A DNA stretch of 7,879 nucleotides from a virus (lineage: Duplodnaviria; Heunggongvirae; Uroviricota; Caudoviricetes). The notes below the pieces were generated by a model, which made no database searches, was not told where the DNA came from, and worked only from the letters and a program-made list of their open reading frames with translations. Shown here piece by piece: positions 1 through 7,879 of the stretch. A program made the position numbers and the translations under genes. Where the stretch lies: the IMG/VR virus record IMGVR_UViG_2671180456_000014; one strand, written 5' to 3'. The number at the start of each line of letters is the position of its first letter. The first letter of the stretch is position 1.

Positions 1-13
1 AAATAAAAACAAT

Positions 14-35
14 AGCGCCCACTATGGGCGCTTTT
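14..35 (+). terminator. terminator-like hairpin, copy 1
   Basis: AGCGCCC-actat-GGGCGCT 7-bp stem at 14-32 followed by TTT; identical stem-loop recurs at 285-303. Sits directly upstream of the RBS of ORF 49-279, so it probably ends an upstream gene outside the window. Confidence 0.45.
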
Positions 36-48
36 AAGGAGCTTAATC

Positions 49-279
49 ATGTTTATTCTTATCGCTGGCGTTAACGTGCGCAATGAATATTTTGTTAATC
101 GCATCGCTGGGATCGCTGGTTACGCTGGGCGCGCAGTCGAGTTTATCGATGAAACGACGCGCAAAATTGACTTATTGAGCGACCAGGAGCGAAAAAAAGC
201 AGACGTGAATGACGCTGATATATTTTTAATGCTAAAAGCGTTTGTAGAAATGGGATTTAAAATCAGTTTGCACAAATAA
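49..279 (+). CDS. hypothetical small protein, 76 aa
   Basis: ATG at 49 preceded by AAGGAG (36-41) with 7-nt spacer; TAA stop at 277-279; followed by strong hairpin terminator. No family recognised. Confidence 0.5.
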   Translation: MFILIAGVNVRNEYFVNRIAGIAGYAGRAVEFIDETTRKIDLLSDQERKKADVNDADIFLMLKAFVEMGFKISLHK

Positions 280-284
280 AATCA

Positions 285-308
285 AGCGCCCACTATGGGC
301 GCTTTTTT
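285..308 (+). terminator. Rho-independent terminator
   Basis: AGCGCCC-actat-GGGCGCT 7-bp stem (285-303) followed by TTTTTT (303-308), 6 nt after the stop of ORF 49-279. Confidence 0.65.
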
Positions 309-332
309 CGTTTCCAATACTCCCACCATAAC

Positions 333-354
333 GCGCCAATGATGGCGCTTTTTT
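333..354 (+). terminator. second tandem hairpin terminator
   Basis: GCGCCA-atga-TGGCGC 6-bp stem (333-348) followed by TTTTTT (349-354). Confidence 0.5.
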
Positions 355-525
355 ATTGTCTTTGACTCACTCCAACAACATAAAAATAAGCGCCAAAATA
401 ACGCCATAGACGCGCTTTTATATCCTTACCAGTACATACCCATTACTTAGCGCATTAACGCGCTTAAATCGCGTTATATTGCGTTATGGTGTATGGTCAA
501 TCATTGGCTTTTATTCTTGCTATGT

Positions 526-570
526 GATCCGCGTTTAATTGTCGGCGCGGATCGGCATTTTGTTTTGTTC
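526..570 (+). terminator. hairpin followed by T-rich tract (terminator-like)
   Basis: GATCCGCG (526-533) and CGCGGATC (546-553) form an 8-bp inverted repeat with 12-nt loop, followed by ggcaTTTTGTTTTGTT. No gene assigned. Confidence 0.3.
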
Positions 571-596
571 CGTATCCGCTCGCGTATTATGTGCGC

Positions 597-641
597 GTGA
601 TTTTTCACATAATCACACCACTTAATCACATATGTGATTAC
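597..641. promoter_or_regulatory. operator-like palindrome cluster
   Basis: Perfect 18-bp palindrome TAATCACATATGTGATTA at 623-640; direct repeat of the TAATCACA half-site at 610-617; inverted GTGATT at 597-602. Target gene unknown. Confidence 0.4.
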
Positions 642-768
642 GCTACGAAAGAAATCTGGATGTCTCAGGCGACGAAAGTCATCATAATTTTCCCCGCTCA
701 CCTGTCCGACAACCGCTGGTTGGATTCCACCAGCTTCCCGATGTTTTTTCTATATAAAGGCGAATGCA

Positions 769-881
769 GCCGTTTCCCGAAAAAATCCTGGCCGTTTCCC
801 GTCGGCTCATGAATGCGTTCCTCGCCGTTTCTGAAAATTTCCCTGCGGCAGCTGGTGGCTATAGAGAAAGGGCCGTTTCTG
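769..881. repeat. iteron-like direct repeats (GCCGTTTCY), 4 copies
   Basis: GCCGTTTCCC at 769-778 and 791-800, GCCGTTTCTG at 824-833 and 872-881 (last copy lies inside the gene A terminator hairpin). Same orientation and same core as the array at 4373-4501. Confidence 0.5.
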
Positions 882-886
882 GCCCT
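861..886 (-). terminator. Rho-independent terminator of gene A
   Basis: On minus strand: GGGCC-agaaac-GGCCC hairpin (870-885) followed by UUUCUCUAU; begins 8 nt after the gene A stop. Confidence 0.5.
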
Positions 887-894
887 CTTCTCAG

Positions 895-1377
895 TTACAC
901 GCCATCAAGGATGTGGATGCGGTTGCTTGCGTATACATTCAGCATAAAGTTAGCGCAAAACAGTTTCCATGTATCAACGCCAGCGGTATACGTAATGTTT
1001 TTGCATTTAATCGCATTGTTGGCGATCCGCATCCCCTGCGATACTGCTTCATCGTCGGAAAATTTGAACGACGATTGAGTTTTAATCCAGACAGAAATCT
1101 GCGTAGCGAACTCAATCAGCTTGGACTGGCAGAATCGCCCGGAGCGCACCGGAAAGACGAACGTTCCGAATCCAGAATTTACCACATACGCTTTCTCAAA
1201 TACCCGCGAGTAACGACGATTGCCAATGATGTCGCGTGCAATAATGCATTTTTCTTGTGCTGACAGTTCTACCGTCTCATTGTCGCGCCATGCACCAAGT
1301 ACTCGTTTTTCAATGTCAGAGAACGTTACAGCGATATTGCCATGTGCGGGTGCGTTTACAGTAGCGATAAAATTCAT
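895..1377 (-). CDS. hypothetical protein, 160 aa (cassette gene A)
   Basis: ORF track 895-1377; ATG at 1377-1375 preceded by AAGGA with 7-nt spacer; own promoter motif and own terminator. No family recognised. Confidence 0.6.
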   Translation of the reverse strand: MNFIATVNAPAHGNIAVTFSDIEKRVLGAWRDNETVELSAQEKCIIARDIIGNRRYSRVFEKAYVVNSGFGTFVFPVRSGRFCQSKLIEFATQISVWIKTQSSFKFSDDEAVSQGMRIANNAIKCKNITYTAGVDTWKLFCANFMLNVYASNRIHILDGV

Positions 1378-1433
1378 GATTAATTCCTTATCGTAAATAA
1401 CAAATTGTTTTCTTGTTGGTGTTAATTATCGTT
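1378..1433 (-). promoter_or_regulatory. conserved cassette promoter and 5' leader (copy A)
   Basis: Sense strand: cGATAATtaacaccaacaagAAAACAATTTGTTatttacgatAAGGAattaatcATG. -10 GATAAT at 1425-1430; C/A-rich leader with palindromic core AACAAATTGTT (1399-1409); SD. Confidence 0.5.
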
Positions 1434-1552
1434 GTACGAATAAGGCGTCAAAGTGGAAAGTTGCGGTAGCCGGACGGGAACAGGTGGGTTTGTCGGTTGC
1501 CTGGAGGTAAGAGGTTGGTGTTTTTAGCCTGCGGGAAACAGGATGGTCATTT

Positions 1553-1576
1553 AAGGCCACCAGCATTGGTGGCCTT
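1553..1576 (-). terminator. stem-loop 5 nt after gene B stop (putative terminator or 3' stabiliser)
   Basis: AAGGCCACCA-gcat-TGGTGGCCTT 10-bp stem; no clean U-tract after it on the minus strand (uuaaaugacc). Contains the Chi octamer on the minus strand (CCACCAGC at 1557-1564). Confidence 0.4.
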
Positions 1577-1581
1577 ACTCT

Positions 1582-1863
1582 TTAGTGTAGCAGACCGATG
1601 TCGATGGTATCCCCTGAATCATCCACACGGATCATCAGCATGGCGAAGGCGTTTAGTGGATAGCTTGCGTGCCATTCAGGGAAGCGGTCATCTCGCATGA
1701 AGTCGGCAATGTCGTAAACGCAGCCCTCAAAGTGGAAGAATCGCGTGCTTACCTGCTCGTCATATTCCACATGATCCATTTCTTGCTGTTCTGTTTCCGG
1801 CAAGTCCAGCCATGATTCAAGGAATACATTTTGTGCTTTAGGGGTAATGGTGAAATCAGTCAT
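1582..1863 (-). CDS. small strongly acidic hypothetical protein, 93 aa (cassette gene B)
   Basis: Start chosen at ATG 1863-1861 (MTDFTITPK...) because GAGGA sits 7 nt upstream; the longer track ORF (to 1995) would run through the promoter motif. About 20 Asp/Glu versus 5 Lys/Arg by my count. Confidence 0.6.
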   Translation of the reverse strand: MTDFTITPKAQNVFLESWLDLPETEQQEMDHVEYDEQVSTRFFHFEGCVYDIADFMRDDRFPEWHASYPLNAFAMLMIRVDDSGDTIDIGLLH

Positions 1864-1917
1864 GAGCATATCCTCACTGCGTAAACATGTTGTTTTCTTG
1901 TTGGTGTAATTATCGCA
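1864..1917 (-). promoter_or_regulatory. conserved cassette promoter and 5' leader (copy B)
   Basis: Sense: TGcGATAATtacaccaacaagaaaacaACATGTTtacgcagtGAGGAtatgctcATG. Extended -10 (TG + GATAAT, 1909-1914 with TG at 1915-1916); palindromic AACATGTT core. Confidence 0.55.
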
Positions 1918-2010
1918 GTGTAGATAAGGCATAAAAGAAGTTAATACAGGCTGAATACACAAGAAAGGTTCTGGAAGTTGATAGCCAGGTTTCAAACTAA
2001 CCTTCGGTTA

Positions 2011-2047
2011 TTAAAAGTCATTTAAGACCACCAATGCTGGTGGCCTT
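2011..2047 (-). terminator. hairpin terminator after ORF C'
   Basis: AAGACCACCA-atgc-TGGTGGCCTT stem (2024-2047, one G-U pair in RNA), followed on the minus strand by AAAUGACUUUUAA. Same stem as 1553-1576 but with the 4-nt loop inverted. Contains Chi GCTGGTGG on the plus strand (2036-2043). Confidence 0.5.
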
Positions 2048-2052
2048 AATAA

Positions 2053-2196
2053 TTATCGCCCGATTACGCTAAGGATCTTTTCCTCAACTGATTTGTTGTT
2101 GCGACTAAACTGCCTTGCGTATCTGATGACAGAAGAGGCGTTTCGCTTTCTGACCATCTCGGCTCTCTCCTTCAGGCGTTTCTTGAAATCGCCCAT
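2053..2196 (-). CDS. small basic ORF, 47 aa (C'), translationally coupled to gene C
   Basis: MGDFKKRLKERAEMVRKRNASSVIRYARQFSRNNKSVEEKILSVIGR. ATG at 2196-2194 lies 2 nt after the TAA of gene C (TAAatATG); stop at 2053-2055, 5 nt before the conserved hairpin. Below the ORF-track length cutoff; called by hand. Confidence 0.3.
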   Translation of the reverse strand: MGDFKKRLKERAEMVRKRNASSVIRYARQFSRNNKSVEEKILSVIGR

Positions 2197-2198
2197 AT

Positions 2199-2573
2199 TT
2201 ACCACCAGGCGCAGAAGGTCAGTCTGTTATTGTGAAAGTCGTGGTTCTTAATCAGATCTTCCACAAGCTCTTTCAACTCCCCCACATCATGCCAGTAACC
2301 TTCATCGTACTCCTGACTGCCGAAGAAAAAACCTTCCCGGGTAGGCAAGTACTCTTCGCAATTACTTTCGTTTATGTGCATCAAATGAGCCTTCAGAAAA
2401 CAAATGTCATTCATCGTTAATTCTAAAAGCTCACAATTTTCGACTTCACCTACGTTGCGCTCCATCCACCCAACGAGCGCATTGAACTTACGGAAGTAAG
2501 CAACCTGCTTTCTGGATGCCTCGTTATTCAGATCGTTTTTAGGCTGTGTCTCGATATAGATATCAAGTCCCAT
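2199..2573 (-). CDS. acidic hypothetical protein, 124 aa (cassette gene C)
   Basis: Start chosen at ATG 2573-2571 (MGLDIYIE...) with AAGGAAA 5-8 nt upstream; alternative GTG start at 2615 gives the 138-aa track ORF. Confidence 0.55.
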   Translation of the reverse strand: MGLDIYIETQPKNDLNNEASRKQVAYFRKFNALVGWMERNVGEVENCELLELTMNDICFLKAHLMHINESNCEEYLPTREGFFFGSQEYDEGYWHDVGELKELVEDLIKNHDFHNNRLTFCAWW

Positions 2574-2650
2574 GATGGTTTCCTTATTAAGTTGCTTCAG
2601 TGAAATCATTTTCACAAATCAGATAAGGCAGAAAACAAATTGTTATCGGG
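2574..2650 (-). promoter_or_regulatory. upstream region of gene C with one copy of the palindromic core
   Basis: Sense: ccGATAACAATTTGTTTTCtgccttatctg... Core at 2631-2644. Arrangement differs from the other cassettes and the -10 is not clear. Confidence 0.3.
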
Positions 2651-2682
2651 CATAATAAAATGGCGCGGTTTACGCGCCATTT
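2648..2682 (-). terminator. Rho-independent terminator of gene D
   Basis: AAATGGCGCG-gttta-CGCGCCATTT 10-bp stem (2658-2682), followed on the minus strand by UAUUAUG; 8 nt after the gene D stop. Confidence 0.6.
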
Positions 2683-2690
2683 AAAGAGGA

Positions 2691-3086
2691 TTAAGCGAAT
2701 ACGCTTTCAGGGATTAAGGTGTCAGCAGGAATGCCGGAGGTAATGCGCAGACCATACTGGCCAATCCAGGCGGTGTTGGTATTCAGGTTGGAGGCGAATA
2801 CGGTGTTAACCATATTCATCATTGGTTCAAACACCTCTTCATCAACCTGGCGGAAGTAGTTCTCGATTTTCAGCAGCAGCGGGTCAGTTGCATCGAAAAT
2901 AGACTGGTATTGAGTCTCGTACTCGCCGCCGGAGGCATCACCTTTACGCACGATCGTACTGGCCTGGACTTCGGCGCCAGTTTCGGTGTTGTACGTAACA
3001 ACGGTGATTTTTGCCACATTCTTACCTTCGGCGGTTTCAGAGGCATAGTAAACATCAACTGTCAGTTTTTCGCGTTTAACGGTCAT
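2691..3086 (-). CDS. hypothetical protein, 131 aa (gene D)
   Basis: Start ATG 3086-3084 (MTVKREKLTVDVYY...) with GGAGAG SD; the track ORF extends 22 codons upstream across the promoter. Has its own sigma70-type promoter rather than the cassette motif. Confidence 0.6.
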   Translation of the reverse strand: MTVKREKLTVDVYYASETAEGKNVAKITVVTYNTETGAEVQASTIVRKGDASGGEYETQYQSIFDATDPLLLKIENYFRQVDEEVFEPMMNMVNTVFASNLNTNTAWIGQYGLRITSGIPADTLIPESVFA

Positions 3087-3110
3087 TTCACTCTCCGTAG
3101 TGTTTTGGTT

Positions 3111-3147
3111 ATTTTTATATTCTATGATCGTAAGTATGTACTTACAA
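3111..3147 (-). promoter_or_regulatory. sigma70-type promoter of gene D with overlapping inverted repeat
   Basis: Minus strand: -35 TTGTAA (3147-3142), 17-bp spacer, -10 TAGAAT (3124-3119). Inverted repeat GTAAGTA-tg-TACTTAC (3130-3145) overlaps -35 and spacer. Confidence 0.55.
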
Positions 3148-3150
3148 TAC

Positions 3151-3180
3151 AAAAAAAAGCCCCGTAAGGATGGCGGGGCT
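3151..3180 (-). terminator. Rho-independent terminator of gene E
   Basis: Minus strand: AGCCCCG-ccatcctta-CGGGGCT followed by UUUUUUUU (the A8 run at 3151-3158 on the plus strand). Confidence 0.7.
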
Positions 3181-3214
3181 GTCGTACGGTCGACTAATTA
3201 CCACTTGCACATTA

Positions 3215-3526
3215 TCAGGCTATTGCCATCACTGATGCTCTCTGAATTTCTTGCTGGGCCACGCGGTTAACTTCCATCAAAGCCAGTTCGAGCTGATGTT
3301 CCGGCCACATTCTTTGAAATGCCATCCAGCCTTTTCCACGCTGGCGACGAACATTCATTACATAACGAGTAAAGGTGTTTTTATCGAAAGACACCGCTGT
3401 TTCACGGAACAGACGAATAGAGGTTCCATTGGCAACGATGTCCAGCAAAGTTAATTGAGCAACCAGCGCAGGCTTCTCTTTTCTCTTCTGGTCTTTGTCC
3501 AGACCAAGAACCAATGATTTTTTCAT
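3215..3526 (-). CDS. small basic hypothetical protein, 103 aa (cassette gene E)
   Basis: Start ATG 3526-3524 (MKKSLVLGLDKDQKRKEK...) with GGAG 5 nt upstream; TGA stop at 3215-3217. Lys/Arg-rich N-terminus and RRQRGKG stretch. Confidence 0.6.
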   Translation of the reverse strand: MKKSLVLGLDKDQKRKEKPALVAQLTLLDIVANGTSIRLFRETAVSFDKNTFTRYVMNVRRQRGKGWMAFQRMWPEHQLELALMEVNRVAQQEIQRASVMAIA

Positions 3527-3573
3527 TACAACTCCGTAAACAACTTGTTTTCTCAATGGCGTAAATAATACCA
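3527..3573 (-). promoter_or_regulatory. conserved cassette promoter and 5' leader (copy E)
   Basis: Sense: TGgTATTATttacgccattgagAAAACAAGTTGTTTacGGAGttgtaaATG. Extended -10 (TG + TATTAT, 3565-3570); palindromic core 3538-3554. Confidence 0.5.
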
Positions 3574-3639
3574 GTAAGAAAACGGCTACAAAGCATATTG
3601 ATCAGGCGCATGAGCGATATGCAGGTTCTTCCCTGCGGC

Positions 3640-3670
3640 TATAGAGAAATTAAGCCAGCATTGCTGGCTT
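3640..3670 (-). terminator. hairpin terminator of gene F
   Basis: AAGCCAGC-att-GCTGGCTT stem (3652-3670) followed on the minus strand by AAUUUCUCUAUAG; same ctatagaga flank as the gene A terminator. Confidence 0.5.
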
Positions 3671-3679
3671 TGGTTGGGG

Positions 3680-4009
3680 TTACTCGAATACTTCAAGAAA
3701 CTCCTGAACGTCCCAATGCTGGACGAGGTGAAGATAGACCTTAGAAATAACGTCATTCTCGCTATCGCATGTGAAGTAGTACTTCTGGCTGCGGTTGTAT
3801 GTGTCCACACAAAATTCGCTCATATCCATAAAGTCAGCATCTTCACCCATGTCGCAAATCATCAAAGCAGGTGCGTCATCACGAGTCATCAGCTCAAGCA
3901 CCCACCGCGAATTGATCAGAGTGGAAGACCAACCTTCTAACTCATAAAACTGATCAAACTCTTTTTGAGTTAATTTCTTAATTTGGTTGATGTCGATATT
4001 TGCAAACAT
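3680..4009 (-). CDS. small strongly acidic hypothetical protein, 109 aa (cassette gene F)
   Basis: Start ATG 4009-4007 (MFANIDINQ...) with AAGGA 7 nt upstream; the longer track start (4030) falls inside the leader motif. About 22 Asp/Glu versus 8 Lys/Arg by my count. Confidence 0.6.
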   Translation of the reverse strand: MFANIDINQIKKLTQKEFDQFYELEGWSSTLINSRWVLELMTRDDAPALMICDMGEDADFMDMSEFCVDTYNRSQKYYFTCDSENDVISKVYLHLVQHWDVQEFLEVFE

Positions 4010-4056
4010 AAAGCAATCCTTAAACAACATGTTTTCTTGATGGTGTTATTATCGCA
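4010..4056 (-). promoter_or_regulatory. conserved cassette promoter and 5' leader (copy F)
   Basis: Sense: TGcGATAATaacaccatcaagaaaACATGTtgtttAAGGAttgctttATG. Extended -10 GATAAT at 4048-4053 with TG at 4054-4055. Confidence 0.55.
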
Positions 4057-4372
4057 ATAACGCACAGGCGAAAAAGAGTTTTATTCCGGTGAATGTGGTT
4101 TTGGCAGTGAGTTTTCAGGTTCAGTACCGAGTACACTTTTTACATTATTCTGATTTAGTGGCCGAAGGTGGCTGGTGGGCAGAATAATCATCTCCCCGAA
4201 AACCTACTGAAATCGATTGTGACCCGTTGGCTGTCTGGCACAATTACGCTGTAGCTGGGCATTCAGAGGGAATCCAGCGGTAAGTAAGTTCGCCTGCACG
4301 TGAGCGCCTCTCTTCTTCCCGCACATTACAGGTGGGCAGCCGCAACTCTCCCTCACGCTATACCGGTACGCC

Positions 4373-4501
4373 GCCGTTCCTGAACCGGCATCGAGCCTTT
4401 TCCCGAAATCCACACAGGCAACTCGACCGTTTCCCTGAAAACCTCCAGCCGTTCCCCGAAGGCAACCCAGCCGTTTCTGTAGCGGGATGCAGCCTTTTCC
4501 C
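4373..4501. repeat. iteron-like array: 6 direct repeats at about 22-bp period
   Basis: Plus-strand GCCKTTYCC cores begin at 4373, 4395, 4426(7), 4448, 4470, 4492 (spacings 22, 31, 22, 22, 22). Minus-strand reading is GGRAAMGGC. Confidence 0.6.
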
Positions 4502-4559
4502 TGTATGGACCGAAGGCTGACCGTAGGGGTGTTACGGGGGATAAAATCAGGAGTTGAAT

Positions 4560-4590
4560 AAATACGAAAAAGGAGGCGACACCCCTCCTT
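4560..4590 (-). terminator. Rho-independent terminator, no ORF upstream
   Basis: Minus strand: AAGGAGG-ggugucg-CCUCCUU followed by UUUCGUAUUUAUU. Lies between the orphan promoter motif and the iteron array. Confidence 0.5.
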
Positions 4591-4623
4591 CCCTCCCCAC
4601 TTATACATACCTGTCTTGTTCGC

Positions 4624-4657
4624 TATACATGTTGTGTTTTCTTCGTGTTTTATCTGT
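4624..4657 (-). promoter_or_regulatory. orphan (ORF-less) copy of the cassette promoter and leader motif
   Basis: Sense: agATAAAAcacgaagaaaacacaACATGTatagcg aligns with cGATAATtaacaccaacaagaaaacaaTTTGTT; -10 is degenerate (GATAAA). No credible ORF before the terminator at 4560-4590. Confidence 0.35.
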
Positions 4658-4699
4658 TTCAACCTCTCTATAGGCGTTAATGCTCACTCCTTCCAGAAC

Positions 4700-5460
4700 G
4701 TTCTATACGGCGACTATTTCTGTTGGTGAATTGGGTGTGTTGTTTTCTCTGTCGGTGTATGTGGTTTCGTTAGTTTTGCGGTGGTTCTTCTATGGGGTGT
4801 TCTCGTCGTTTTGGTGATTGTTCTTCTCCGTGTATGGAGTAATGGCAGGTGGGCGATTGCTTTCGTTATTGTGTTTGAGTTGTTTGTCTGGAGTGTGTGA
4901 AAGGCTTTTGTAGTTATTCGTGTGTTGGGTAATGGCGTTTCCCGTGATTGTTATGTTTCGTGTCTTTTGGGATTGAGAGAAGCCTTGCGGTTACAGGCTT
5001 CGTTGGGGTTTCAGTGATTCTGGTGTTTCTTCGCTGTTTGGGGAATGGCGTATCGTGGGTATTGCGCGTATGAATGTTTTCGGATTGCCTGTGAAAGTTA
5101 GGTTGGTTGTCCGGTAGCCTGGGAAGAAGAGGTGGGTCTTTTCGGTAGCCTGCCATAAAGAGGTTGGTTGTTTTGGGTAATGGCATATGTGTTATTTAGT
5201 TGTTTTGTTATGCCTGAAAATAAGTTGTTTATATGGTTGTGTAACGCAACGGGAACGATTTTGAGCGTGTGTTTTTGTTGGTAGTGTGTTGGGTCGTCTG
5301 TGGTGAAAATTGGACGCTGTGGCGCTGTCTGCTGCGTAGAGTTACGGGTATAAGCAGTGATGTGTGAAAACGTCAATTTTTTAGACCAAATCGGGTGAAA
5401 GCGTTGATGTTTCGTTGATCTGTTATTCAGTTGTTTTCTTGATTGTATAAACAACTATAA
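4700..5460. repeat. strongly G/T-skewed non-coding region of degenerate intergenic-module repeats
   Basis: Plus strand is about 80% G+T in sampled stretches. Recurrent GGTAATGGC units near 4842, 4931, 5044, 5180; 5113-5185 aligns with the region upstream of promoter A (1464-1540); degenerate promoter-motif copies at 5274-5290 and 5431-5445. No credible ORF on either strand. Confidence 0.55.
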
Positions 5461-5518
5461 CTTATTGATATTTAAGGATGTGATTGCGGGTATGGAAGGG
5501 GAGTAGTGGCGATCAACG

Positions 5519-5538
5519 GATTCTTATAGAAAAGAATC
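5519..5538. other. inverted repeat downstream of gene H
   Basis: GATTCTT-atagaa-AAGAATC 7-bp stem; no U-tract on the minus strand, so not a canonical terminator. Confidence 0.3.
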
Positions 5539-5564
5539 AAATTGTGACCGCCATTATCAATGTT

Positions 5565-6299
5565 TTACTTAGTTTTGTTTAGCAGAGAGAGAATTTCATC
5601 ACTAATTTCACTCGCCTGTTTGATAGCCAATGCAGTTACCTCTTCTATGGTTGGTGACTGTTGATGCTCATATTTGGTTTCGGTTATGACAATGTGTTCT
5701 TCACCAGAATTTGCGCATAGTGCCGCATTGACGATAAGGTTTGAGTAAGAATTTAGCAGAGCACTGTTGATGAACGCTTTCACGGTATTACTGTCTGCAC
5801 CAAATACATCTTTTCTGACCGCTTCAGCCTCACAGCGAACCCCTGCAGCAACATCGTGAAGAACATGTATGGCCTTGGAGCTTGTTTGTTCACAGTACTC
5901 AATCATTATTGTCGAATTGTTCTGTTCAACAAACGATCTGATGCCTGACGATTTACCCATAGCATCGAAGGCAGCGTGACCCGCACTAGTAGAGATATCT
6001 TCATAGAGTTCTTCATCGCTATCTTTTTCTTCAGGTGTCGAGGTGTCTTCATCGTCGTAATAGATATTGCCTTTAATCAGTGTCTTGGACACTTGATATA
6101 AACAATAAGAAACGAGATTTAAGCATTGGATTTTAGCTGTATTGTCCTTTGTCGCCTCGCTCTTCAGTTCTTTCGCTTCTTCAGTAAGGCTGTTGATAAG
6201 ACTTTGTATTTTTTCCAACGCGTTAGGTGCACACTCCGCGTTGTCCATAAAGAATTTATAACCAGTTCCAGGGATTTCTAAACTTTTCAACTTTTTCAT
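5565..6299 (-). CDS. hypothetical protein, 244 aa (gene H), AT-richer than its surroundings
   Basis: ORF track 5565-6299; ATG 6299-6297 with AGGA about 11 nt upstream; 45 nt after gene G with no promoter motif of its own, so probably co-transcribed. Acidic patch YYDDEDTSTPEEKDSDEELYED. No Walker, HTH or transmembrane signature seen by eye. Confidence 0.6.
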   Translation of the reverse strand: MKKLKSLEIPGTGYKFFMDNAECAPNALEKIQSLINSLTEEAKELKSEATKDNTAKIQCLNLVSYCLYQVSKTLIKGNIYYDDEDTSTPEEKDSDEELYEDISTSAGHAAFDAMGKSSGIRSFVEQNNSTIMIEYCEQTSSKAIHVLHDVAAGVRCEAEAVRKDVFGADSNTVKAFINSALLNSYSNLIVNAALCANSGEEHIVITETKYEHQQSPTIEEVTALAIKQASEISDEILSLLNKTK

Positions 6300-6344
6300 T
6301 TCTTTGATAATCCTAAAAACAAACTACCAATGCTTTAATATCTG

Positions 6345-6644
6345 TTACCAGTTCCAGCACTCAAGCCCTTCAACGACCGGTGCACCACAATCAAAATGTA
6401 CAGAGTCAAAGCCTACATCAAGTACTTTCTGAATGTTAGCAATCGCGCCTTCGGATATACCATATCGACGCAAGTCGTCTTTCCAGACATCATCCTGTAA
6501 CCCGGCGTGGACAATACAACCGCCGTCAATTTGCGAAACCCAATCCAGCTCATTGCTTGCGATCATGAATCGACGAGCATCTTCCTCTGATGTATGAGAT
6601 GAACTGATCAATGCCACCTGGTAGGCTTGGGTAATGTTCAACAT
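6345..6644 (-). CDS. small acidic hypothetical protein, 99 aa (cassette gene G)
   Basis: Start ATG 6644-6642 (MLNITQAYQ...) with GGAG 8 nt upstream; the track uses an upstream GTG at 6653. TAA stop at 6345-6347. Confidence 0.6.
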   Translation of the reverse strand: MLNITQAYQVALISSSHTSEEDARRFMIASNELDWVSQIDGGCIVHAGLQDDVWKDDLRRYGISEGAIANIQKVLDVGFDSVHFDCGAPVVEGLECWNW

Positions 6645-6722
6645 TTCAACCACTCCGAAACAATTTGTTTTCTTATGTGGCTTATTATCTCAATTAACAA
6701 AAGGCAGAAAACAAATTGTTTT
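6645..6722 (-). promoter_or_regulatory. conserved cassette promoter with two palindromic cores (copy G)
   Basis: Sense: AAAACAATTTGTTTTctgccttttgttaatTGaGATAATaagccacataagAAAACAAATTGTTTcGGAGtggttgaaATG. Extended -10 GATAAT at 6684-6689; palindromic cores at 6658-6671 and 6709-6722 flank it. Confidence 0.55.
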
Positions 6723-6754
6723 AGGGTATGCGTAAATCAGAAGGGATTGTGTCT

Positions 6755-6786
6755 ATATGAAAATGCCCAGCGTGTTGCCGGGCATT
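6755..6786 (-). terminator. probable metG terminator
   Basis: Minus strand: AAUGCCC-ggcaacacgcu-GGGCAUU followed by UUCAUAU, about 20 nt after the metG stop. Confidence 0.45.
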
Positions 6787-6805
6787 GCGAACAGAGGTTG
6801 TTTAA

Positions 6806-7879
6806 TTACTTAACCTGGTGGCCTGGTTTAGCACCAGCATCCGGGCTTAACAGGAAGATATCTTTCCCGCCGGGGCCAGCAGCCATCACCATGCCTTCGG
6901 AGATACCGAAGCGCATTTTACGCGGTGCCAGGTTAGCCACCATAATGGTGTGACGACCAATCAGTGCCTGTGGATCTGGATAAGCGGAACGGATGCCTGA
7001 GAAGACATTACGCTTTTCACCGCCGAGATCCAGCGTCAGGCGTAGCAGTTTGTCAGAACCTTCTACAAACTCTGCGTTTTCAATCAGCGCCACGCGCAGG
7101 TCAACTTTGGCGAAGTCGTNNNNNNNNNNNNNNNNNNNNNNNNNNNNNNNNNNNNNNNNNNNNNNNNNNNNNNNNNNNNNNNNNNNNNNNNNNNNNNNNN
7201 NNNNNNNNNNNNNNNNNNNGTCAGGCGTAGCAGTTTGTCAGAACCTTCTACAAACTCTGCGTTTTCAATCAGCGCCACGCGCAGGTCAACTTTGGCGAAG
7301 TCGTCAAAGGTGATAGTTTCCTGAATCGGGTCGTCAGCCAGTGGGCCAGTTACCGGTGCGGCTGTGGCTTTCACTTCTTCTTTGGATGCTTCCACCAGTG
7401 CTTCAACCTGCTTCATATCGATGCGGTTATACAGTGCCTTGAACGGATTCACTTTATGGCCCAGCAACGGTTGCTGGATGCCATCCCAGGTTAGTTCTGT
7501 ATTGAGGAATGCCTCTGCACGTTCAGTCAGTTTTGGCAGTACCGGTTTCAGGTACGTCATCAGCACGCGGAACAGATTAATGCCCATAGAGCAAATCGCC
7601 TGCAGATCGGCATCGCGTCCTTCCTGCTTCGCCACCACCCACGGAGCCTGTTCATCGACATAGCGGTTAGCCAGGTCAGCCAATGCCATGATTTCACGGA
7701 TAGCTTTACCAAATTCGCGGCTTTCCCATGCTTCGCCAATCACTTCAGCGGCATCAGTAAAGGTTTTGTACAGTTGCGGGTCAGCCAGTTCGCCTGCCAG
7801 CACGCCGTCAAAACGCTTGTTGATAAAGCCTGCATTACGAGAGGCCAGGTTAACCACTTTGTTCACGATATCGGCATTC
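6806..7879 (-). CDS. metG: methionyl-tRNA synthetase, 3' portion (runs off window; interrupted by assembly gap)
   Basis: Minus-strand translation gives ...[105 protein letters not shown], which I recognise as the enterobacterial MetG C-terminus (tRNA-binding domain). TAA stop at 6806-6808. The apparent frame change is fully explained by the 100-N gap plus 85-bp duplication (185 bp, not a multiple of 3). Confidence 0.9.
7035..7304. repeat. 85-bp exact duplication flanking the gap (7035-7119 = 7220-7304), assembly artefact
   Basis: Identical sequence gtcaggcgtagcagtttgtcagaacc...ggcgaagtcgt on both sides of the N run; collapsing one copy and the gap restores a continuous metG reading frame. 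Confidence 0.9.
7120..7219. other. scaffold gap (100 N)
   Basis: Run of exactly 100 n characters. Confidence 0.97.

Follow-up and report, generated by a model that had tools for sequence, protein, structure and literature searches.

The 7,879-nt window analyzed here (the whole stretch of IMG/VR record IMGVR_UViG_2671180456_000014, from a virus of the class Caudoviricetes) carries an array of small genes on its minus strand, named A to H in this text. Several of them are headed by a repeated promoter-leader element that contains a 17-nt dyad between the promoter and the ribosome binding site. This element is very probably a gene-control cassette used across the family of SSU5-like phage-plasmids, so that the genes behind it form a regulon. 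The dyad probably keeps these units off in lysogeny, and we propose, tentatively, that it does so because a phage-encoded relative of the flagellar regulator FljA reads it on the mRNA leader. Based on megablast searches, the whole window is part of plasmids of about 108 kb found in E. coli, E. albertii and Shigella, and positions 15-6800 are 98.5% identical to pLF82 (NC_011917), the same molecule as Escherichia phage Cyrano (OV696614). Cyrano is an SSU5-like phage-plasmid of strain LF82, and SSU5 shares 81% identity with it over 65% of the genome (PMC9928086). The suspicion, raised in a preliminary description of this DNA, that the cassettes derive from a phage or plasmid element was therefore right: their source is a 108-kb SSU5-like phage-plasmid.

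The repeated element of about 50 bp described earlier is real. A search of the window with AGAAAACAANNTGTT, allowing up to one mismatch, gave seven matches against 0.06 expected, and none of 200 shuffled controls reached seven. The motif is best written as AGAAAACA-NNN-TGTTT(A), 17 nt long; its core consists of 5-bp inverted arms, AAACA-NNN-TGTTT, around a free 3-nt spacer, and it is made asymmetric by a conserved 5' AG. A palindromic core AAACAA-N-TTGTTT had been proposed for it; the dyad is indeed present, but the arms given here describe it better and leave gene F no exception. Five copies are in forward orientation, on the minus (gene) strand, at A, B, E, F and G. They begin 10-11 nt past the -10 hexamer and the Shine-Dalgarno sequence (SD) follows 1-9 nt further on, which places all five between a -10 element and an SD. 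The -10 elements, identified by hand and by script, are TGCGATAAT at B and F, TGAGATAAT at G, TGGTATTAT at E and AACGATAAT at A. The extended -10 that had been ascribed to these promoters thus occurs at B, E, F and G, but the hexamer of A, GATAAT, lacks the TG. A generic sigma-70 scan misses the cassette promoters because of their poor -35 regions.

The other two copies are reversed, on the plus strand at 2630-2646 and 6706-6722, with their centres at about -37 of the C and G promoters. Gene C does carry an altered form of the element, as first noted: it has a reversed copy only, over the -35 region, and none in the leader. At the G promoter the two motif copies are complementary at 16/16 positions and their centres are 49 bp apart. 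In the promoters of A, B, E and F the -35 region is TTTTnTGCCTTAT, the reverse complement of GGCAGAAAA, and from this resemblance these regions look like decayed reversed copies of the motif. Genes D and H have no motif copy, and the promoter scan revealed no recognisable promoter for H.

The 3' ends of the cassettes are GC-rich terminators followed by T runs. Hairpins were located by the terminator scan after B, after the C operon and after F, with another closing the non-coding stretch between F and H; those after D and E were read by eye. The hairpin of A is weak and none lies between G and H, so that the earlier statement that most genes are followed by a hairpin holds with these reservations. 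The terminators of B and of the C operon (1551-1577 and 2023-2049) are inverted, near-identical copies of 27 nt with 96% complementarity, and the hairpin family AAGGCCAC..GTGGCCTT to which such terminators belong also adjoins reversed motif copies in Cyrano and SSU5. Like the promoters, therefore, the cassette ends on the 3' side form a repeat family. An Rfam search of the window gave nothing above chance. The open reading frames (ORFs) are mutually unrelated, as had been stated (best non-self blastp E = 0.03), and the picture of autonomous units made of promoter, leader, gene and hairpin is upheld. The features of the array are the following.

1397-1451, minus strand: promoter-leader of A, with TTGACG at 1451-1446, GATAAT at 1430-1425 and leader ACACCAACA
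1413-1397, minus strand: A motif AGAAAACAATTTGTTAT, followed by SD TAAGGA and the ATG at 1377
895-1377, minus strand: gene A, 160 aa, pI 9.2, phrog_1641; the commonest motif cargo (73 loci)
1882-1917, minus strand: promoter-leader of B, with TGCGATAAT at 1917-1909 and motif AGAAAACAACATGTTTA at 1898-1882
1582-1863, minus strand: gene B, 93 aa, pI 4.1, phrog_1845
1551-1577, both strands: bidirectional terminator after B, TTAAGGCCACCAGCATTGGTGGCCTTA, from the hairpin scan
2022-2049, minus strand: C-operon terminator, its hairpin in one family with that after B
2053-2205, minus strand: small basic ORF of the C operon, CYRAN_109, 50 aa, pI 11.3
2199-2573, minus strand: gene C, 124 aa
2608-2646, both strands: C promoter, with TGTGAAAAT at 2616-2608 (minus) and reversed motif AGAAAACAAATTGTTAT at 2630-2646 (plus) over the -35 region
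2691-3086, minus strand: gene D, 131 aa
3147-3119, minus strand: D promoter TTGTAA-17-TAGAAT, which differs from the cassette promoters and has no motif
3537-3573, minus strand: promoter-leader of E, with TGGTATTAT at 3573-3565, motif AGAAAACAAGTTGTTTA at 3553-3537 and SD ACGGAG
3215-3526, minus strand: gene E, 103 aa, pI 10.5, phrog_5125; 69 loci
4021-4056, minus strand: promoter-leader of F, with TGCGATAAT at 4056-4048, motif AGAAAACATGTTGTTTA at 4037-4021 and SD TAAGGA
3680-4009, minus strand: gene F, 109 aa, pI 4.2; no SSU5 homologue
3652-3670, minus strand: terminator after F, from the hairpin scan
4567-5449, minus strand: non-coding stretch, with a half-motif leader at 5449-5432 and a terminator at 4593-4567
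5565-6299, minus strand: gene H, CYRAN_102, 244 aa, coiled-coil, no motif
6345-6644, minus strand: gene G, 99 aa, DUF5983
6657-6692, minus strand: G promoter, -10 element TGAGATAAT at 6692-6684 and forward motif AGAAAACAAATTGTTTC at 6673-6657
6706-6722, plus strand: G promoter, reversed motif, centre at about -37

None of the nine ORFs could be given a function: Pfam recognised only DUF5983 (gene G), all PHROGs assignments were 'unknown', and NCBIfam and PADLOC returned nothing. Six of the nine are small and acidic (pI 4.1-4.7); small acidic proteins are common among phage early and anti-restriction proteins, which is at most suggestive of the anti-defence role surmised earlier for the cargo and proves nothing.

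The element is not private to this island but a genome-wide signal. For a genome-wide scan the Cyrano genome was put together from three record segments, and 17 motif sites were found in it. Thirteen of them are sense-oriented and lie 12-67 nt ahead of the start codons of 12 genes: TerS (two tandem copies), parA, the replicative helicase, gp58, nrdB, tciA, gp87 and the array genes G, F, E, B and A. At cobT there is a weaker upstream copy. Another three sites are reversed and fall on -35 regions (C, G, gene 93), and one is intragenic, at codons 4-8 of gene 117. SSU5 has 18 sites and carries the motif at the orthologous genes, so that the same element heads terminase, partition, helicase, ribonucleotide reductase (nrdB) and cobT genes besides the array and is kept in both phages. 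The alternative of a generic intergenic repeat lying away from gene starts was also looked for; the motif is instead tightly linked to gene starts. In the terminase operon the two tandem copies are followed by a hairpin, and left-half-only copies occur ahead of CobS, SSU5 gp99 and the non-coding stretch. The distance between dyad and SD, 1-9 nt in the array genes, increases to about 23 nt in backbone genes (parA, nrdB).

Conservation of the motif follows the same lines in the wider family. Across elements that are 20-35% divergent in the array region the arms are conserved and the spacer is free. The reversed copies are conserved in Cyrano, in SSU5 (gp99, gp104) and in more distant elements, where they retain the same internal asymmetry and their 3-nt spacers vary. 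The related loci yielded 252 distinct 17-mers, in which substitutions in the arms mirror each other (AAATA and TATTT) and show no wobble bias. In IMG/VR, nearly all contigs with several exact copies are SSU5-like, and 24 of the 25 such contigs among the matches listed encode the FljA-like protein; unrelated contigs contain single motif matches only, in a number near a rough chance estimate for 17 fixed bases. The intragenic site of gene 117, AGAAAACAACTTATT, has one mismatch, lies outside the window (Cyrano 103475-103489, minus strand) and is retained in orthologues. Gene 117 is the small gene preceding the FljA-like gene in the operon of the UvsW helicase, and its site may be autoregulatory or merely the coding sequence for KKTTYC.

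The sole expression data found are RNA-seq tables of the lysogen LF82 grown overnight in lysogeny broth (LB) (PMC9928086, S1), where the median normalised count of Cyrano genes is 9.8. The motif genes are at this background: TerS 7.1, helicase 21, gp58 5.7, NrdB 13, G 7.5, F 13, E 12, B 6.7 and A 25. ParA, whose SD is 23 nt from the dyad, reaches 50. The motif-less neighbours H and CYRAN_109 have counts of 57 and 58, 5-6-fold above background, although their upstream genes are silent. Each must therefore be transcribed from a promoter of its own, and both behave as morons. Extended -10 promoters like those of the cassettes are expected to fire, yet they are silent, which is indirect evidence for either negative control or a missing activator. 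We consider it probable, and clearly the better of these two possibilities, that the dyad is a site of negative control that keeps the units off in the plasmid-prophage state.

As to the protein that reads the dyad, only one conserved protein matched a regulator family: CYRAN_114 of Cyrano and its SSU5 counterpart SSU5_121 match PF03614 (repressor of phase-1 flagellin) with E of about 1e-80. The CYRAN_114 gene is located in the UvsW operon, some 1-1.5 kb to the left of the window, and the lysogen expresses it (log2 of 7-8 under four out of five conditions). Every one of the 12 full-length SSU5-like phage records that tblastn recovered encodes the FljA-like protein, as do 98 IMG/VR contigs. Homologues at least 53% identical come from many enterobacterial genera, mostly on contigs 105-115 kb in approximate length, whereas the chromosomal FljA proper shows about 40% identity to the phage protein. 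The structure model predicts tandem Sm/Hfq-like domains and no helix-turn-helix (HTH), and it is from this predicted fold only that RNA binding may be suggested. FljA has been described to prevent translation of fliC mRNA (PMC2652032). In ten genomes the fliC leader ends in ...CAATAACATCAAGTTGTAATTGATAAGGAAAAGATC-ATG and has a dyad, ATCAA-N7-TTGAT, directly before AAGGA, with a loop that varies between species. Work ascribed to Inoue in 1989, and to Yamamoto and Kutsukake and to Aldridge in 2006, reportedly dealt with the fliC operator and with decay of fliC mRNA caused by FljA. The phage motif and the fliC leader share their geometry (a dyad, then (T)AAGGA), the sequence CAAGTTGT and an A/C-rich upstream region.

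The mechanism we propose would work as follows. Each cassette would consist of a sigma-70 promoter, with an extended -10 in the island, from which transcription would start about 3-5 nt before the 17-nt dyad; this predicts minus-strand starts near 1417 (A), 1902 (B), 3558 (E), 4041 (F) and 6677 (G), and near 5443 for the non-coding stretch. The dyad, AGAAAACA-NNN-TGTTT(A), would then be part of the leader, followed by the SD, with a terminator of one hairpin family usually at the 3' end of the gene. In lysogeny the FljA-like protein would bind the leader dyad and block the adjoining ribosome site, and the bound protein would also make the message less stable, in the way reported for FljA and fliC. 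Where transcription starts, that the dyad mediates repression, which protein reads it and that this protein acts on RNA are all inferred. That the FljA-like protein is the reader is a possibility we place near, though below, an even chance; given that reader, action on RNA rather than DNA is somewhat favoured, and the complete proposal remains tentative.

Several observations weigh against it. The reversed copies at about -37 (C, G, Cyrano gene 93, SSU5 gp99 and gp104) are conserved but outside the mRNA, for which a DNA-level site is the simpler explanation; by inspection no acceptable -10 was seen for them, and the idea that they give rise to tiny RNAs found no support. The RNA hairpin of the dyad is marginal, with a predicted stability of -0.4 to -0.7 kcal/mol, shuffled sequences fold as well as the leaders do, conserved variants break the stem (TGGTT at TerS, TATTT at the helicase), and dyad variation is too small for a covariation test of the stem. 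Since the lysogen data are RNA levels, a purely translational block would require mRNA decay in addition. A motif matrix built from 26 phage sites never ranked the fliC leader first in 10-11 fliC loci (8 kb), so that in sequence the motif is but weakly tied to the established target of FljA. Co-occurrence of motif and FljA-like protein is trivial within a single phage family, and because the motif stays unchanged even where identity of the FljA-like protein drops to 53-59%, co-variation of the two is uninformative. Strain LF82 and S. Typhi CT18, which we take to be motile, carry such elements, and this suggests that host fliC is not a target of the phage protein. We found no paper linking FljA, phage-plasmids or the motif.

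An alternative that we hold at about one chance in three is that the dyad is a DNA operator. A repressor present in the prophage state would occupy the asymmetric site on double-stranded DNA at +4 to +20, and sometimes an inverted site at about -45 to -29 as well, and block RNA polymerase; candidates are CYRAN_117, another small conserved protein, or the FljA-like protein itself acting on DNA. This reading is nearly as likely as the one at the RNA level and gives a better account of the reversed copies, which together with the forward copies bracket the core promoter, a classical layout for repressor sites that brings to mind the single and paired asymmetric C1 operators of P1, as the complementary pair at G illustrates, and which keep their asymmetry in divergent elements while the spacers vary. 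It also agrees with the mirror-symmetric pattern of arm substitutions and with the lysogen data, in which the RNA of the motif genes is itself at background. CYRAN_117, a conserved 92-aa protein encoded in the operon of the FljA-like gene and expressed 12-fold above background in the lysogen, shows a ribbon-helix-helix (RHH)-like pattern by eye, but it has no Pfam match and its AlphaFold2 (AF2) monomer model is of low confidence (predicted local distance difference test, pLDDT, 58). Among the conserved proteins that the lysogen expresses, we found none in which a DNA-binding domain could be recognised. CYRAN_45, an HTH protein called the putative master repressor in PMC9928086, was rejected as a common reader, as SSU5 lacks a homologue though it has the motif; CYRAN_37 and CYRAN_123, conserved and winged-HTH-like by eye, were rejected as they are silent in the lysogen. 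A DNA operator would moreover leave the tight abutment of the site on the SD in the array genes unexplained.

Readings that dispense with a phage repressor fare less well. It is unlikely that the cassette has no dedicated trans-acting reader and is simply a good promoter with an unstructured A/C- and A/U-rich leader, kept alike between genes by recombination or gene conversion in the manner of the PeSL (promoter-early stem-loop) repeats discussed below. The lack of structure in the leaders, the left-half-only copies before CobS, SSU5 gp99 and the non-coding stretch, and the occurrence of the same promoter clusters ahead of unrelated cargo would be expected in this case; but the arms are conserved against a freely varying spacer in elements 20-35% divergent, the reversed copies are conserved outside any leader, and strong extended -10 promoters yield only background RNA in the lysogen. 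Positive control by a lytic-phase factor, acting on the nascent leader by nut-like antitermination through the cassette terminators or on DNA as an activator, appears quite improbable; the units would then be off in lysogeny because this factor is missing. A terminator at each unit, an A/C-rich box followed by a small dyad that loosely recalls boxA-boxB, the two tandem copies and hairpin of the terminase operon and the silence of the genes in the lysogen all fit it. Against this, promoters with an extended -10 as a rule work without an activator, the reversed copies, centred at about -37, overlap the -35 region, in our judgement an unusual place for an activator, and no N- or Q-like protein was recognised. 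A host protein, IHF or Hfq, is a very improbable reader. An A-rich half followed by a U-rich half could suit Hfq, and AACAAnnTGTTTA matches the IHF consensus WATCAANNNNTTR at 7/9 positions, but the mismatches fall at the two positions that are most informative for IHF, only SSU5-like contigs in IMG/VR have the motif in multiple copies, and conservation as strict as this would not be required of a host site.

Whatever its reader, the cassette also doubles as a recombination junction at which accessory genes are exchanged. We compared 86 related loci (80 from IMG/VR plus six further encoding contigs) and two complete genomes, grouping ORFs of at least 40 aa behind a motif and an SD by single-linkage clustering and classifying promoters by clusters of the 30 nt upstream of the motif. 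The 411 motif copies followed by an SD and such an ORF gave 26 families, of which about 20 look real. One promoter cluster heads F, MIKMPVTVEVWG or MYKHLNISITLC in different elements, a second heads E or F, and a third heads a DUF5983 gene or a DUF1380-like gene; the conserved junctions around variable cargo that had been surmised from the window are thus found between elements, with the same promoter cluster ahead of unrelated protein families. The 23 nt before the F motif are identical (23/23) to those of SSU5 gp111, although F has no SSU5 homologue. Because the units have a common 5' junction and similar terminators, recombination between cassettes would exchange the cargo and turn the region into a hyperplastic accessory array.

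The preliminary description could name no family with such an architecture, but an analogue exists. The PeSL cassettes of T4-like phages are composite terminator/promoter repeats between small ORFs in hyperplastic regions (PMC2839356, PMC4122927). As in those regions, short conserved repeats lie here between small ORFs of unknown function and serve as exchange points between unrelated genes; 5-7 copies in the window are adjoined by one hairpin family, and gene replacements have their junctions at the repeat, as in F and the SSU5 gp111 promoter. However, the carrier here is a siphovirus phage-plasmid and no T4-like myovirus, the sequence is unrelated, the conserved part runs into the leader as a dyad by the SD, core genes (terminase, parA, helicase, nrdB) are included, and the genes are silent in the lysogen instead of being known early genes.

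Other known systems resemble parts of the arrangement. Dispersed immunity-repressor sites have reportedly been described as the C1 operators of phage-plasmid P1 (ascribed to Lobocka, 2004) and the stoperators of mycobacteriophage L5 (ascribed to Brown, 1997). Like these, the sites found here are asymmetric, of 13-17 bp, more than ten per genome, orientation-biased and near gene starts, with some inverted pairs around a promoter, and the element that carries them is a plasmid prophage, as P1 is. They show no evident similarity to either consensus, and no C1- or gp71-like repressor was identified. Plasmid global regulons governed by HTH, RHH or ParB-type repressors, such as RK2 KorA/KorB and R388 ArdK, KorA and StbA, likewise place one short operator at many unrelated operons, partition and accessory functions included; those plasmids are conjugative and their repressors known, whereas the present element lacks a conjugation module and a search for a DNA binder found none. 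The FljA-fliC system of Salmonella flagellar phase variation has a PF03614 protein on the same replicon, a leader dyad before UAAGGA and CAAGUUGU in common with the phage system. It differs in that the proteins are about 40% identical, the fliC leader matches the motif matrix poorly, FljA has one target against at least 13 units per genome here, and the reversed, untranscribed copies have no counterpart. The units also resemble morons, being autonomous promoter-gene-terminator units between other genes, but morons are expressed from the repressed prophage (PMC9928086) and the motif genes are at background. Integron cassettes do not apply, as no integrase is present in or beside the array; the only one is about 50 kb away and absent from SSU5, and the hairpins at the cassette 3' ends are terminators. 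Neither does an anti-defence island of a conjugative leading region, as no conjugation genes are annotated in Cyrano and 708 of the 737 plasmid records that match the window are predicted to be non-mobilizable. No prior description was found of the combination of PeSL, operator, regulon and FljA-like aspects, nor of an Hfq-fold reader.

The interval between F and H comprises 1.5 kb without a credible gene; PGAP calls none there, and CYRAN_103 and CYRAN_104, ORFs of the Cyrano record in this interval, are probably spurious. The minus strand of window 4600-5430 is 40% A and 30% C. The half-motif copy at 5449-5432 recurs in SSU5, and the related loci keep it in 45 distinct contexts; the stretch as a whole shows 67% identity to SSU5 over 1.3 kb and is silent in the lysogen. 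It contains seven leader-like stretches against 1.9 expected (P about 0.012). From its sequence, 4567-5449 may encode a candidate non-coding RNA of the lytic phase; we can only speculate that this A/C-rich transcript of 0.85 kb is a decoy by which the block would be lifted on induction.

Escherichia, Klebsiella, Salmonella and Enterobacter commonly harbour SSU5-like phage-plasmids, and phage-plasmids carry resistance genes (PMC9600943). We found no paper describing the mechanism of lysogeny control in SSU5-like elements. A single cis-element ahead of terminase, replication, partition and accessory genes offers an experimental handle on the lysogeny switch, and the motif is a sequence tag with which variable accessory genes can be found and delimited. 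Through the cargo swapping at the cassettes, the PeSL idea, conceived for virulent T4-like phages, now covers temperate phage-plasmids as well. If the FljA-like protein is the reader, a family known only from flagellar phase variation would include a phage-encoded global regulator of Hfq fold. A still broader scenario, which we regard as rather doubtful, is that most units are silenced post-transcriptionally in the plasmid state by this Hfq-fold FljA-family master regulator through one 17-nt operator at no fewer than 13 units per genome, with the flagellar FljA-fliC pair as its single-target offshoot or source.

In annotated records the array lies between the UvsW-helicase operon on one side and metG-apbC on the other. 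The preliminary description had placed the island beside a chromosomal core housekeeping gene, metG; a chromosomal island at this locus is ruled out, as the whole window is phage-plasmid DNA with its own metG-apbC. One feature of this region is in the window.

6806-7879, minus strand: metG, 3' part, broken by an assembly gap

The metG and apbC genes are inside the phage-plasmid, and SSU5 has neither; the chromosomal E. coli metG is only 90-95% identical to the window copy. The metG of the window is captured host DNA within the phage-plasmid. In Cyrano, 89738-93029 (window 6806-7879 and on) holds the full metG with the adjoining apbC (mrp), which are presumably a neighbouring pair on the E. coli chromosome. 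The gap is a run of 100 N at 7120-7219 within metG, with the same sequence of about 85 nt on either side (gtcaggcgtagcagtttgtc...gaagtcgt), which identifies it as a scaffolding artefact.

Other repeats of the window lie outside the cassettes. Arrays of (C/G)AGCCGTTTCCC on the plus strand, at 769-881 (four copies) and 4395-4501 (five copies with a 22-bp period), flank genes A-F and have no others in the 108-kb Cyrano genome; they look like iterons or a centromere. In non-coding DNA to the left of gene A, at about 605-645, TAATCACA is repeated four times, once within AATCACATATGTGATT, a perfect palindrome of 16 bp, and this cluster is possibly another protein-binding site. Window positions 1-350 contain three terminator-like hairpins around a small plus-strand gene at 49-279 (CYRAN_112), two of which, at 14-35 and 285-306, are identical 22-nt copies of AGCGCCCACTATGGGCGCTTTT.

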